NCBI RefSeq assembly: GCF_057098645.1
Contig: NZ_JBXSPU010000002.1
Strand: one strand, 5' to 3'
DNA from: a plasmid
Length of the DNA stretch: 64,000 nucleotides
Each line of letters starts with the position of its first letter. Positions within the stretch are counted from its first letter, which is position 1. Shown in pieces: positions 55,501 to 61,500 of this stretch. The position numbers are program-made.

Positions 55501-58500
55501 CAGGCCAGCCCACTGGACAGGATATGTTCAAGACAATCGCTGACCAGATACATTTCCACCGCCGAAAAACGTGCGCCCCGGTTCAGGATGGCATCGAGCA
55601 CCACGGGCAGGTTTTCGTCGTCCTCATCGAGCCAGCAGGGGTGATCGCTTTCCTTCACGACTAGGCGAAAGCGGCGCGTCTGGCGGGTCAGTAACGTCTG
55701 ACCGGTGGTGGTCAGCGCCGCCCGGATACGCAGCGTATCTTCTGCCACCCGGCAACTGACACTGCGTACAGCATCACGCACCGCCGCAAGTACAGCCCTG
55801 ATTTCGTCTTCGGTCAGCCATTCACCGGCATACGGAAAAGACACCTGCGTTCCGTCTGCCGGAAGTACCGGCAGCGACTGCCACTGACTGCCGGACAGTA
55901 CAAGTTCCGCCCCGGTTCCGGTCAGTTTGTGAATAGCGGAGGCCAGGAGCGGCGGCAGTACGCCGCCGTGACGGTTGATAAGTAACGTCGCCAGCCGGGG
56001 CGCATCCAGCAGAACATAAATGCTGATCCAGCCCGGATACTTCGGGTTCCGCTGGTCAACATCAGTCTCTTCCGGCCAGCCCTGCGCCAGCAGCAGGTCG
56101 CGGGCGTGACGACAAATCAGTGCATTCAGCGTTGTGTTTTCGTTCATGATTAATCGTTCTCCCTGTATCGCCGCCCGAAGGCGGCGATAACATCAGTCGT
56201 TTTCGTGCGTGTTGTTTTTCAGCAGGATGCGGGCCTGATTAACCACCGCCTGACGGCGGGTGACGAATTCCGGGACGGCGAGGCCGTTATCACGGGCGGC
56301 CCATTCACGCTTCCACAATGCCTGTTCAGCGGTCTGAATCAGGGACGCCAGCAGTTCAGCAGGGACGGTCACCTGGCGGTTTTCACTCACGTTGCTGATA
56401 ATCTCCATAGCCGCACCGGAAGAAATACCGGACTCAGTCCGCTGGTCTTCCGGGATGTCCTCCAGCCGCGCCAGGACGGTCCTGATTTCATGATCGGACA
56501 GGGAAATATCCATTCCATCAGCGAGGACCTGAATCTCTTCCGGGGACCAGACAACCAGCATCAGCGGAGTGTCTCCCGGATACTGCGCTGCCAACTCCCG
56601 GCAGAGCGTTTCGCATGTTCCGTACATACTCTCTCCCCTCAATCTTTGAAGCAGGAATCCAGTTCCAGAATTTCGGTATATGCCTCCATCAAGAGGCGGT
56701 TTGCGCGAAACAGCGTCTGACGCACCAGACGTTCCGGCAGGGTGTCGGCATTAAAGCTGTACCGCTGCTCCATCTCATTCATGGTTGTACGCAGGTCGCA
56801 CATGGCATTGGCCACCTCCGCCACTTCGGCGCGCAGTTTTTCGTGTCCGGCATAGTTCATTTACGCAGCCTCCGGTTCAAACCAGTTATCATTCGCGGCC
56901 CCCTGCTGCATGGCCCGTTGCACGGCGGCCAGTCGTTGCTGTCCGGCACGGTGATACTGTTCAAGCAGCTCGATACCGATATACCGGCGTCCGGACTGAA
57001 GGGCGGCCACGCAGGTTGAGCCGCTGCCTGCAAACGGGTCCAGCACAATTGCGTTCGGATGTGTGAAGCTCTCAATCAGTGGTTGCAGGCTGGTAACGGG
57101 CTTTTCCGTCGGGTGATGGCGGTTGCCTGAATATTTCCAGCCCAGCACGTCGGGCAATGGCTTCTGAGGCAGCGCCGGACGCCCTTTTGCCAGGATGTAA
57201 GCGCATTCGTGGCGATAGCCCACATATGCGGCCTTCGATGTGTAGGTTTTGGTAAATACCAGGTGGCCAACCACGCTGAATCCCGCATTTTTCCAGGCGG
57301 CCATAAAGCGATCGACGCGGTTCCAGCCATAGAAGCTCACCATCAGCGCATCTTTTTTCAGCACTCGGTACATTTCATTACAGGCCGGTTGCAGCCATTC
57401 ATCGGTTTTATCGCCGGCGATGGTACGCCCCTGACGGTCACGGAAACCGACGAGATATGGCGGGTCGGTGAGGATGAAATCGACAGCATTGCCCGGAAAC
57501 GTGGCCATAACACGCACGCAGTCACCCTGGATAAAACGGGACATAACAGCACTCCTTCTCTTACAGAGGGCACCGGGAGGGCGCCCCTGTGGCGCCCGTT
57601 CCCCGCTGCCTGTGGGCTGTTCACCGCGTCCGGTAACGGGTCAGGCCGACCGTGGAATACCGCAGCCGTCGTCTTTTTGACGGCGAGGATATGCCGCGAA
57701 AGCGGCTTGAAGGGCGTTCATCAGAAAAGGGCGACGGGCTGGCGTACACTGTCACCAACGCCAGCCGGGAGCGGTAAAAGCGCCCGTCCCGTGCCCGGCC
57801 GGACGCGGGACACTGACCACAGGCAGCGTTCCTGCCGCGCCGCGTCAGCCGGCGCAGTAAAAAGAGGAGCCCGGCGACATCCTTTACCGGAAAAGAAACG
57901 GGCGGTTGCCCGCCCGTCTCCGTCATACTTCATCCTCCATAATGCGCCACATTGTCGACTATCCACGCCGGTCCGGTGACTTCCGGCAGCTCATCGTCAT
58001 CTGTCGGGGAAGACCATTCAAGTTCCCCCCCACAGCACATCAACGAGCTCTCCACGCTCATACAACTGCCAGCCACAGAAATCACAGCCCTGTTCGGCAT
58101 ACCAGTGCTCCAGTGTGCAACTGAAACGGCGGCTTAATTCTGCAATAACGTCGCTTTCTGGCTGACACCACGGCGTGTCAAAATCCACCTGAATGAAGTT
58201 GTCTCTCTGACTGCTGATATTCACCTCATACCCCACAGGCCACTTCACGCCATACTGTTCGGTATACCAGTGATATGCAGAAGGAACACCGTTCAGAACA
58301 CCACCGTTAAAGCCGTTTACTTCAACATCCAGGCGGCTGGGCATCAAAATGGGGTACCGTGGTTTCAGCTGAAGTCGGTGAAATTTTCGGAGCCGGTCAT
58401 CGTCTTCTCCAGTAATTACCCGCTATACGCATCGATGTCGAACAGGGTCATGGTTCATCTGGAGGCGCTGGCACCGCGCGTTGAGCAGTACTCGATTGAC

Positions 58501-61500
58501 GAGATGTTTCTCGACGTGCGAGGTATTGACAGCTGCATCGATTTCGAGGATTTCGACCAGCAGCTGCGTGAACACGTCAGGAACGGGACTGGCCTGACTA
58601 TCGGTGTCGGAATGGGGCCAACCAAAACGTTGGCAAAGTCAACACAATGGGCTTCCAAAGAGTGGCCACAGTTTGGTGGCGTGCTGGCATTAACGCCGGA
58701 CAATATCCGCCGTGCGGAAAAACTGCTGTCACTGCAGCTGGCGCACGAACCCTGTATTTATCAGGAAGAACTTCAATGTGGTTCTGGAGAGAAAGGTCCG
58801 GGAACTCAATGGAGAAAGCTGTATTTCACTGGAGGAAGAACCGCCCCCCCAAACAGCAGATAGTCTGCAGCCGGTCCTTTAGAGAGCGCGTCACGACATA
58901 TGAGGCCATGCGCTAGGCCATCTGTCGGTACGCTGAGCGTGCAGCTGAAAAGCTGCGGGGCGAGTGTCAGTTCTGCAGACATATCGCCATTTTTTTGAAG
59001 ACGTCACCGTTCGCAGTAAACGAACCGTATTACGGGAATGTGGCCAGTGAAAAACTGCTCATCCCCACGCAGGATACACGGGATATCATTGCCGCTGCCG
59101 TTAGAATTCTGGACAGGATATGGGTGGATGGCCATCGATATGCAAAAGCGGGTTGCATACTCAACGATTTCACTCCTACCGGGGTTTCGCATTTGAACCT
59201 TTTCGATGATACTCAGCCCCGGAGCAACAGTAACCAGCCGTTGAAAGTCGTGGACAGCATTAACCATTCCGGTCTGGGGAAAGTGTGGTTTGCAGGCCGA
59301 GGCATTGCGCCAGAATGGCAGATAAAGCGTGAGATGTCGTCACCGGCATACACTACCCGCTGGAACGAACTACCGGTCGCCAGACTTTGAAAAAAAGAAA
59401 TTCATGGTGATTTCACTATGAAAGAATTAAAAAAAATACTTTATATTCAGTAAAATAAGCATGAAAAAAGCGTGGTGAAAATTGCAAAAAAAGGATGCCA
59501 TTTGGCATCCTGATATTAACCCGGCATATCCTATTCAGGCAGTTTTCTTAGAATGTTTTTTATAGCCTCATCGATTTCTAACTGCACCTCATTAGATATG
59601 CGGGAGAACTCATAAACAACAAGACGCTTTCTGGGGTCAGTCTTCTTTCTGGCAAATTGGTTACGATCAGAAAACTCTTTCAACTTCTCAGTTTCCACTG
59701 TTTTTACAGGCCGGTCTGTAAGCAATTTTCCTTCAGACCTGAAGACCGCCAGGATTTTGCTTTTCTCAATTGTTGGATAGTCAGGTAAAGCCATCAGTTT
59801 TTGGCGAACTCTATCCATAAACTCTTCCACTGACATTTTTTTGTTGGTTGCCTTTTCAGACAGTTTCAACAAAAATTGATAGTCCGACAGCGAAATATCA
59901 TTGATTATCGGAAATACAGAGATCATTTCATCCGGTACTGATGCCGCCTGAAATGCGCGTGTTACTTTTGCCGGAGAGATGCTTTCAGCCTGAGCGATCT
60001 CTTCTTTTGTCATACTTGCCCCATAAGTAACTTCAAGGCGTTTTCCTAGTTCTCGGAGGCTATGCTCTCTGGCTGTCTGTATATCTTTTGCAAGTTGTCT
60101 CGCGTCGGCAATATCAATACTGTCTTTTGTAACCAGTATTTCGAATTTTACGTTGTTATAGATACAGGCAGCACGACGACGCGTACCGTCTAATACTTCA
60201 ATTCGTCCATCTACTTCCCGACCAATAGCCGGAAAAAATTGCTGAAGTTTAATCGTGCGAGTTATGTCACTAACTGACTCACGCGAAAGCATAGTCTGAT
60301 CGCGTCCATTAACAGATACATCAACGAACGTTTTAGATTCTATATCTCCGCTTAATACAACCGTTTTAATGAATTTTGCTTGTTTCCCCGACTTAAGAGT
60401 AAACGTTTTGATCTCTCCGTCACCTTCAAGCATGCGAGCGAACTCTGAATTGCTATTGCCGAGAACTCGCCCTCGAGCTAAAACCTTTTTCATTTGGATG
60501 CTCCCCGAATGTATTCAATGCGGTCAAAAACGGCTTTAGTAAATCGTTCCGCTTCGGTACGAGCTTTTTTCAATGCCTCTGCACTTCCTGGATACGAAAC
60601 AGGGTTAGCACTGATGATAGTGTCAAAAGATTCACCACATCGTTCGAACCCGTCCAGTCTCGGAAGCGATGAGTCAAGAATATTACTCGCATACACTTCA
60701 CGAGCCAGGCTATAGGAAGTTTCGTGATCGCGCTTACTGGTCATTTTGGACATAAACCCTATGCTCGCACTCAGGCGGGGCTCAACGCCTTCTTCTTCCA
60801 AACGTTCTAGCATTTCAGGTAAACGAGTCAAATATTTGAGAGTTGAATGGAAATCAACTTGCGCCGGGGGAGTAGGGGTGAGAAGTAAATCACTCGCAGC
60901 CAGGCCATTGAGAAGAAATGGATCAAGATGAGGGCCAGTATCAATAAAAACAAAATCATAATCATCAGCGATACGGTCAATGATGGTTTTCCTGAGTACT
61001 TCAGAAGGCTTAAAACCAGGAAGGTGTTCAGCAACCAAAGACTCCCATTGGCTTGCTACGAAGCCGTCATCAATAGAAGCAGGGATGACATCAACGCCAG
61101 GAATCATAGTGGGTCGGATAACCGCTTCTCGCAGTGTTTCAGCATCGAGATTATTTAGCATTGCTTGGGCGGCAGTTTCAAGGACTGTACCAATACTATG
61201 GGTATGGTCCAAAAACATAGTGCTGGACGCCTGCGGGTCAAGGTCGATCACAAGGATACGAAGGTCATGACGCAGCAAATCCGGATGTACTCGTAGTGCA
61301 TGCGCCAGCGTTACTGTACTGACGGTTTTTGAAACCCCACCTTTCAAGTTGACGACAAAAATTACGTAAGGTTCTTTATGAACATCGCGATATTTTGGTA
61401 TCTGTCGGTGAGCGTAAATATCAATAACGTTCTGAATTGTTAATGCATACTGCTCGACGTTGCCTACCCGCTTTTTATTAAATTCATAGCCACTTTCTTC

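Follow-up and report, generated by a model that had tools for sequence, protein, structure and literature searches.

The umuC locus described here is very probably a dead remnant of a plasmid DNA polymerase V (pol V) operon of the umuDC type and, judged from its sequence, would now be without function. It lies in a window of 64,000 nucleotides (nt), the whole stretch of plasmid DNA that was analyzed (contig NZ_JBXSPU010000002.1 of the RefSeq assembly GCF_057098645.1). Alignment to an intact and to a second truncated allele places the remnant at nt 135-1272 of the intact 1275-nt gene. In UmuC, Asp6 is catalytic and Tyr11 is the steric gate, while the thumb carries a helix-hairpin-helix (HhH) motif. 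The remnant has lost all three, its frame is shifted three times and interrupted by a stop codon, and no polymerase can be produced from it. Its significance is chiefly as a record of plasmid rearrangement. The coordinates of the features are collected in Table 1.

The open reading frame (ORF) pieces on the plus strand are unambiguously homologous to UmuC, as the first-pass annotation had claimed. Searches against Pfam found the IMS domain (E = 3.5e-19), a partial IMS_C domain (E = 2e-07), and, in the ORF at 58995-59390, the DUF4113 domain (E = 1.7e-17). The NCBIfam model NF002955 (UmuC) was the top family for both large pieces (E = 3.6e-57 and 1.7e-64), although their scores of 194.2 and 218.3 bits do not reach the cutoff of 431 bits that an intact relative passes with 813.8 bits. 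With the intact plasmid UmuC of Citrobacter freundii pRHBSTW-00502_2 (424 amino acids, aa) as the query, tblastn gave three blocks with a joint E value of 1.9e-175. Alignment to intact umuC alleles, the check proposed with the first annotation, located both the breakpoint (58333-58343) and the frameshifts, and neither a complete uninterrupted Y-family frame nor the single frame of ~420 codons typical of the UmuC subfamily was found. The locus had been described as three pieces split by frameshifts or stops, collinear with UmuC from about residue 90, and spanning 58018-59390. Frameshifts and one stop are indeed present, but the collinear segments are four and fall in three frames (frame 1, 58354-58741; frame 2, 58742-58849; frame 0, 58848-58913 and, after the TAG, 58917-59387). 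The homology starts at about residue 48 (umuC nt 135, window position 58333), and position 58018 is the stop of a minus-strand ORF, the remnant itself covering 58333-59390.

The lesions are distributed over the length of the gene. No match to UmuC residues 1-47 was found anywhere in the window, and motif I with Asp6 and Tyr11 is thus missing. Just inside the junction, the G run is one base shorter than in the intact alleles, a change common to every plasmid with this junction. Further downstream, a deletion of 78 nt (26 codons) is flanked by 12-nt direct repeats, CACTGCAGC(C/T)GG, of which a single copy is left at 58730-58741; it takes out the HhH motif of the thumb, PVEEIWGVGRRISKKLNTMGITTALQ (residues ~182-207; WGVG...). 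Directly after it, 2 nt are missing from a (GC)n run, which brings the total loss to 80 nt and shifts the frame. We rejected a single 80-nt event, as the M8-type plasmids have the loss of 2 nt only and the plasmid pRHB27-C20_3 the 78-nt deletion only. Since pRHB27-C20_3 combines the 78-nt deletion with a different 5' junction and an undamaged GC run, the repeat-mediated deletion arose at least twice, and the 12-nt repeat pair is a recurrent slippage hotspot. The C run with the next frameshift is hypervariable, with lengths of C6 in the intact alleles, pO55 and dog plasmid B, C8 in M8 plasmid A, C9 in pAUSMDU00014361_01, and C5 in pRHB27-C20_3. This variation may provide a fine-scale lineage marker, or it may in part reflect homopolymer sequencing errors in some of the records. 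Retained in the remnant are the Asp101-Glu102 motif (YSIDEMFLD, in the first piece), the little finger, the DUF4113 domain, and HLNLF, which resembles a clamp-binding motif.

Table 1. Features in and around the umuC remnant, given as positions in the window unless stated otherwise
Feature	Position	Strand	Basis or comment
DNA methylase gene	56861-57544	-	Pfam N6_N4_Mtase
Hypothetical gene, 101 aa	57621-57926	-	ORF listing
3' stump of DUF1281 (Api92-like) gene, residues ~163-300 of 300 aa	57930-58343	-	Pfam, tblastn, PGAP
109-aa ORF within the DUF1281 stump	58018-58347	-	ORF listing; Pfam
+1 frameshift in the DUF1281 stump, C7 on the + strand	58025-58031	-	C6 in pO55, dog plasmid B and M8 plasmid A
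Deletion junction, 11-nt microhomology GCGGCTGGGCA	58333-58343	.	Three-way base-by-base comparison
UmuC (pol V catalytic subunit) pseudogene	58333-59390	+	Alignment, tblastn, NCBIfam NF002955
5' loss in umuC	umuC nt 1-134 (~45 codons) missing	+	Alignment
tblastn block, UmuC residues 48-184	58339-58749	+	Frame 1
-1 frameshift, G run of G4 (G5 in intact alleles)	58351-58354	+	Common to every plasmid with this junction
78-nt (26-codon) deletion scar and 2-nt loss	58730-58748	+	Alignment to intact allele
tblastn block, UmuC residues 209-245	58742-58852	+	Frame 2
+1 frameshift, hypervariable C run, C7	58844-58850	+	Alleles compared
tblastn block, UmuC residues 243-423	58845-59387	+	Frame 3
Nonsense codon TAG; CAG (Gln) in intact alleles and M8-type relatives	58914-58916	+	Alignment
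Original umuC stop codon TGA	59388-59390	+	Alignment
AT-rich spacer with box-A-like GGTGATTTCAC ... GGTGAAAAT, candidate P1-type parS	59391-59491	.	Conservation
Intrinsic terminator hairpin of parB	59492-59511	-	Terminator scan
parB	59531-60493	-	ORF listing
parA	60490-61746	-	ORF listing

The left edge of the remnant is a deletion junction. Homology to umuC begins at 58333, homology to a DUF1281 gene on the minus strand extends rightward to 58343, and the two stumps meet head-to-head. The 11 bases shared by the two homologies, GCGGCTGGGCA, are common to umuC nt 135-145 and to the DUF1281 parent, in which they read GCGGGTGGGCA, and this overlap points to a microhomology-mediated deletion. The comparison of the three sequences indicates that a single deletion fused the inside of the divergent DUF1281 gene to umuC nt 135. 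The deletion took the 5' ends of both genes, the divergent promoter region, dinI, and umuD. The ancestral layout, with DUF1281 on the minus strand and transcribed divergently from dinI-umuD-umuC on the plus strand, is intact in Escherichia coli pCE0032f2, and the same neighborhood is found in E. coli p2 (CP059927), adjoining the same type of parBA. The minus-strand ORF of unknown function that had been noted upstream of umuC is present at 58018-58347, but it is part of a truncated and frameshifted DUF1281 pseudogene, the other stump of the same deletion. Pfam matched the 109-aa ORF to the last 35 positions of DUF1281 (143-177 of 177) and to DUF1281_C, and tblastn with the intact DUF1281 protein of pCE0032f2 placed residues 163-269 at 58347-58027 and residues 269-300 at 58028-57933. 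The stump has lost the N-terminal 162 codons and the promoter, and falls short of the full length of ~300 aa.

The partner genes and the regulatory signals of the operon are missing as well. Two divergent UmuD queries, DinI, and SRAP gave no tblastn match at E<1e-3 in the whole 64-kb window, which bears out the earlier statement that no umuD- or mucA-like gene lies upstream, and no second UmuC is encoded in the window according to tblastn. Both hallmarks of an SOS-regulated umuDC, mucAB, or impCAB operon, an adjacent gene for an S24 peptidase (umuD, mucA, or impA) and a LexA box with a promoter, are absent from the locus: no LexA box precedes the remnant, and no sigma70-like promoter was found on the plus strand at 57500-59400. 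The LexA-box pattern CTGT-N8-ACAG occurs only three times in the window (8894-8909, 15200-15215, and 15853-15868), with 0.63 matches expected by chance; the match at 15853, CTGTATCTTGATACAG, is palindromic. The intact umuDC operons of IncF plasmids, with the order SRAP-umuD-umuC in C. freundii pRHBSTW-00502_2 and the impCAB-like order dinI-umuD-umuC in E. coli pCE0032f2, belong to the same NF002955 family and occupy the same position as the remnant, between the methylase block of the leading region and the partition genes; DNA identity between the remnant and the Citrobacter (pRHBSTW-00502_2) allele is 83-89%. Unlike these operons, the window is devoid of umuD, dinI or SRAP, and umuC codons 1-45, and shows the 80-nt loss, two further frameshifts, and the stop. 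Similarly, the remnant falls into the same Y-family UmuC subfamily as the chromosomal UmuC of E. coli but is without its Asp6, Tyr11, HhH thumb, and continuous frame. The first-pass conclusion that the mutagenic-repair operon on this plasmid is dead is right in that the remnant is nonfunctional, its scope being the 64-kb window rather than the plasmid. On the basis of that window, the pO103/pO55-type virulence plasmids of enterohemorrhagic and enteropathogenic E. coli (EHEC and EPEC) cannot supply plasmid-borne pol V mutagenesis.

Related plasmids suggest an earlier step in this history. In E. coli p2 (CP059927.1), the order of genes is a methylase gene, a hypothetical gene, an intact DUF1281 gene (minus strand), umuD, a umuC stub of nt 1-128, an island, umuC from nt 127 to its end, parB, and parA. 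The island of 8.3 kb (26504-34790) sits at umuC codon 43 (Glu) and ends in imperfect terminal inverted repeats, TTATGTGGAATTG... and ...CAATTCCAAATAACATA, with AGA flanking each side. Three tyrosine recombinases are encoded at its right end, and its cargo, an E1/JAB fusion, an MBL-fold hydrolase, and a WYL protein (PADLOC; E1-E2/JAB matches), looks like a ubiquitin-like defense module. The umuC stub on the left shares 97.8% identity with the impCAB-like operon of pCE0032f2, whereas the right fragment belongs to the umuC lineage of the window and is only ~67% identical to that operon; the presence of the island at the same codon, Glu43, in two umuC lineages speaks for insertion at a specific site. 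Exactly the same junction, at umuC nt 126/127, is found in p2, pAPEC-O2-211A-ColV (1724-4992), and pRHB27-C20_3, and it lies 8 nt upstream of the breakpoint in the window. The last of these plasmids (CP057410.1), the nearest relative without the window's junction and uniformly 92-97% identical to the remnant, keeps 232 nt of the island (2249-2480), fused to DUF1281.

Given the closeness of pRHB27-C20_3 and the offset of 8 nt, the most economical history is an island insertion followed by a deletion. The island would first have split umuC at codon 43, as it has in ColV-type and other IncF relatives, and a deletion from DUF1281 to umuC nt 135, then of ~10 kb and not ~1.7 kb, would also have removed it. 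From these sequence comparisons, we moderately favor the view that the insertion preceded the junction deletion in the lineage of the window. Several points weigh against it: no remnants of the island or of a recombinase were found in the window, the evidence for the step comes from relatives and from the 8-nt proximity, and a direct deletion of 1.7 kb from an intact operon gives an identical junction. Such a direct, microhomology-mediated deletion in an intact DUF1281-dinI-umuD-umuC array, with no island ever present and a merely coincidental proximity of 8 nt, is the best of the alternatives, possible though distinctly less probable. It accounts for the clean 11-nt microhomology between DUF1281 and umuC and for a window without island sequence, and arrays with DUF1281 divergent from dinI-umuD-umuC do exist. 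However, among the records examined no intact umuC is nearer than about 89-92% to the allele of the window, and the nearest cousin without the junction, pRHB27-C20_3, has an island scar. Moreover, in p2 the DUF1281 side is linked to the other umuC lineage (67%), the two lineages meeting only across the island, and it is unlikely that chance placed an endpoint within 8 nt of a point of site-specific insertion.

A more specific version of the island history, which we put forward only tentatively and consider rather doubtful, sees in the remnant the scar of a recombinase-trio island targeting codon 43. A break left by excision at the right end of the island would have been resected and then joined, through microhomology, to a similar-looking stretch of DUF1281, removing the island, umuD, and the 5' stub of umuC in one step. 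With its three tyrosine recombinases, the island resembles the integron-like elements (ILEs) in Pseudomonas rulB and the recombinase-in-trio (RIT) elements. The Pseudomonas ILEs, which carry three recombinases, integrate at a specific site 123 bp inside rulB, with a 3-bp repeat (Rhodes et al. 2014, PMC4542609). Both kinds of element have a recombinase trio at one end, carry variable cargo, end in inverted repeats, and are flanked by a 3-bp repeat; both are inserted close to the 5' end of a umuC-family gene, with a large 3' fragment left beside plasmid maintenance genes. Their sites differ: the target GAT of the pWW0 ILE is Asp42 of RulB, which aligns with Asp34 of UmuC, and the enterobacterial island is found nine codons downstream at Glu43. 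The similar distances (123 bp and nt 126/127) had suggested one and the same site, which we rejected on the pWW0 mapping. Unlike the rulB fragments, the window contains no island, and its breakpoint lies 8 nt further in. A recombinase-trio island at a fixed umuC codon in enterobacterial IncF plasmids, echoing the Pseudomonas rulB hotspot, is outside the window the more interesting by-product of the analysis.

The lesions are nested among M8-, pO55-, and pO103-type plasmids, and this nesting provides a stepwise order of decay. M8 plasmid A, pFHI_NMBU_03_1, pCFSAN083828_2, and Escherichia albertii pESA135_1 have the junction, G4, and the loss of 2 nt in the GC run, without the 78-nt deletion or the TAG. 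Both the 78-nt deletion and the TAG occur in pO55 and dog plasmid B, in which the C6 run and the DUF1281 run have their ancestral lengths. Read from these states, the junction and the losses of 1 and 2 nt are the oldest changes; the pO103/pO55 clade then acquired the 78-nt deletion and the TAG, and homopolymer slippage is the latest and ongoing step. The nested states make a ready character set for ordering lineages of IncFIB virulence plasmids.

To the lesions can be added a signal of relaxed selection. We computed the ratio of nonsynonymous to synonymous substitution rates (omega, dN/dS) from Nei-Gojobori counts on the frame-restored alignment, drawing inference about selection from close and uniformly diverged comparisons only. 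Between the remnant and pRHB27-C20_3, omega was 0.68 (15 synonymous and 34 nonsynonymous changes); the 34:15 split did not differ from neutral (P = 0.24), while the family baseline of omega 0.15 was rejected (P = 2e-7). The changes were spread evenly across the N-terminal, middle, and C-terminal parts, the C-terminal ORF included. Against M8 plasmid A, omega was 0.41, calculated from only 19 changes (8 synonymous and 11 nonsynonymous). Among intact or distant alleles, it was about 0.10-0.15. The substitution pattern that has built up since the nearest relatives diverged is nearly neutral, and selection on the locus is relaxed. The umuC alleles are strongly mosaic, identity in neighboring 100-nt windows ranging from 65% to 100%, indicating that dead and live copies of umuC on different plasmids often undergo homologous exchange. 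A truncated ColV-type allele of E. coli, for instance, matches intact Citrobacter alleles at 99-100% identity over ~200 nt but at only 70-72% in the next window. As the alleles are mosaic, we rejected the low omega (~0.13-0.16) against ColV-type and Citrobacter alleles as proof of independent, recent truncations. Two points count against the reading of a dead locus: read-through transcripts across the remnant may occur, and with mosaic alleles a deep dN/dS cannot date the truncation.

A further alternative is that the remnant still yields a useful noncatalytic protein, one that binds the clamp or RecA/UmuD' and modulates the host pol V or a replication checkpoint. The candidates are the 131-aa C-terminal ORF at 58995-59390, with DUF4113 and the clamp-motif-like HLNLF, and, in relatives, a truncated UmuC of 399 aa. 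Noncatalytic roles of UmuD2C are well established. Moreover, splitting rulB of pWW0 at 123 bp reportedly left UV tolerance unimpaired (Rhodes et al. 2014, PMC4542609), and M8 plasmid A (NZ_CP010192.1, 5926-7125) has the 399-aa frame open, with a score of 555 bits for NF002955 and the name UmuC from the NCBI Prokaryotic Genome Annotation Pipeline (PGAP). Nevertheless, a functional fragment is very improbable. The frame in the window has four breaks, with no promoter-like site upstream; the 131-aa ORF starts with TTG, with no ribosome-binding site evident by eye, and the C-terminal changes are mostly nonsynonymous (10 nonsynonymous to 5 synonymous against pRHB27-C20_3 and 6 to 5 against M8). The open frame of M8 plasmid A exists because its C8 run adds 2 nt that cancel the loss of 2 nt upstream; it starts at a GTG inside the antisense DUF1281 sequence, is without Asp6, and holds ~34 out-of-frame residues between the compensating indels. 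The "UmuC" coding sequence of M8 plasmid A is probably an annotation false positive.

The locus is shared by many plasmids. At least 22 PLSDB records contain the stretch 57900-59520 (1621 nt) at 100% identity, among them the pO103 sequence of 2009 (NC_013354, from E. coli O103:H2 12009); pO55 of O55:H7 CB9615 has it at 99.4%, and 80% or more of the locus is present in 42 of 5,426 complete E. coli genomes. That the frameshifts are homopolymer errors of sequencing or assembly in a gene less damaged than it looks has practically no chance of being right: three of the lesions do lie in homopolymer runs of variable length among close relatives, but the identity across these independent records excludes assembly errors, and the 5' truncation, the 78-nt deletion, the loss of 2 nt in the GC run, and the TAG are not homopolymer events and are each disabling alone.

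At the level of annotation, the feature is known, since PGAP already calls both stumps pseudogenes in identical plasmids. In NZ_CP027389.1, which matches the window over the 1373-nt query 58018-59390, the equivalent of 58270-59390 is a [quoted passage not shown] and that of 57930-58347 a [quoted passage not shown] (C6P70_RS29250 and RS29255). In contrast to our analysis, PGAP neither names UmuC nor flags its N-terminal loss, nor are the stumps tied to one deletion; its start at 58270 is a fortuitous GTG in antisense DUF1281 sequence. A better annotation is a fusion of two 5'-truncated genes, umuC and DUF1281, rather than a DUF4113 protein beside a hypothetical gene. Our literature search for truncated umuC on plasmids gave no directly relevant paper. 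"umuC" is listed among the genes of pO145-13516, a plasmid whose listed gene set is similar (Cooper et al. 2014, PMC3893438). In a 41-kb view, NZ_CP027389.1 is an EHEC-type plasmid with stcE and the etp genes of the type II secretion system intact, and its F-like backbone is widely eroded. Many other pseudogenes lie in this backbone, which shows a truncated traJ, a frameshifted DUF932 gene, an IS4 transposase gene interrupted by a stop, and several fragments of IS3.

On its right side, the remnant ends at a conserved spacer. The spacer (59391-59491) is conserved even in comparison with ColV-type plasmids whose parAB is only ~78% identical, and the motifs GGTGATTTCAC and GGTGAAAAT flank its AT-rich core. 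By analogy with the known box architecture of P1 parS, it looks like a candidate P1-type parS. TCGCCA at 59377-59382, in the last umuC codons, was considered as box B of a P1 parS and dropped, because ColV-type plasmids with a related ParB do not conserve it. Other plasmids have lost more of the umuC tail, with matches running from ~59214, 59311, or 59363 to just past the stop, but the tail is always kept up to the spacer. Deletions from the left may be tolerated only as far as the candidate parS, and the remnant would then persist only because it abuts a parS-parB-parA partition module that cannot be lost.

Two annotations in the surroundings of the DUF1281 stump deserve mention. PGAP flags a DUF1380 gene (window equivalent 56193-56679) as frameshifted, and we rejected it as a sign of decay: tblastn aligned residues 1-144 at full length in a single frame, with 91.7% identity to an intact homologue, and a longer reference model may explain the flag. 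The 76-aa plus-strand ORF at ~57749-57979, antisense to the 101-aa gene and labeled "arginase" in two RefSeq plasmids, is probably spurious.

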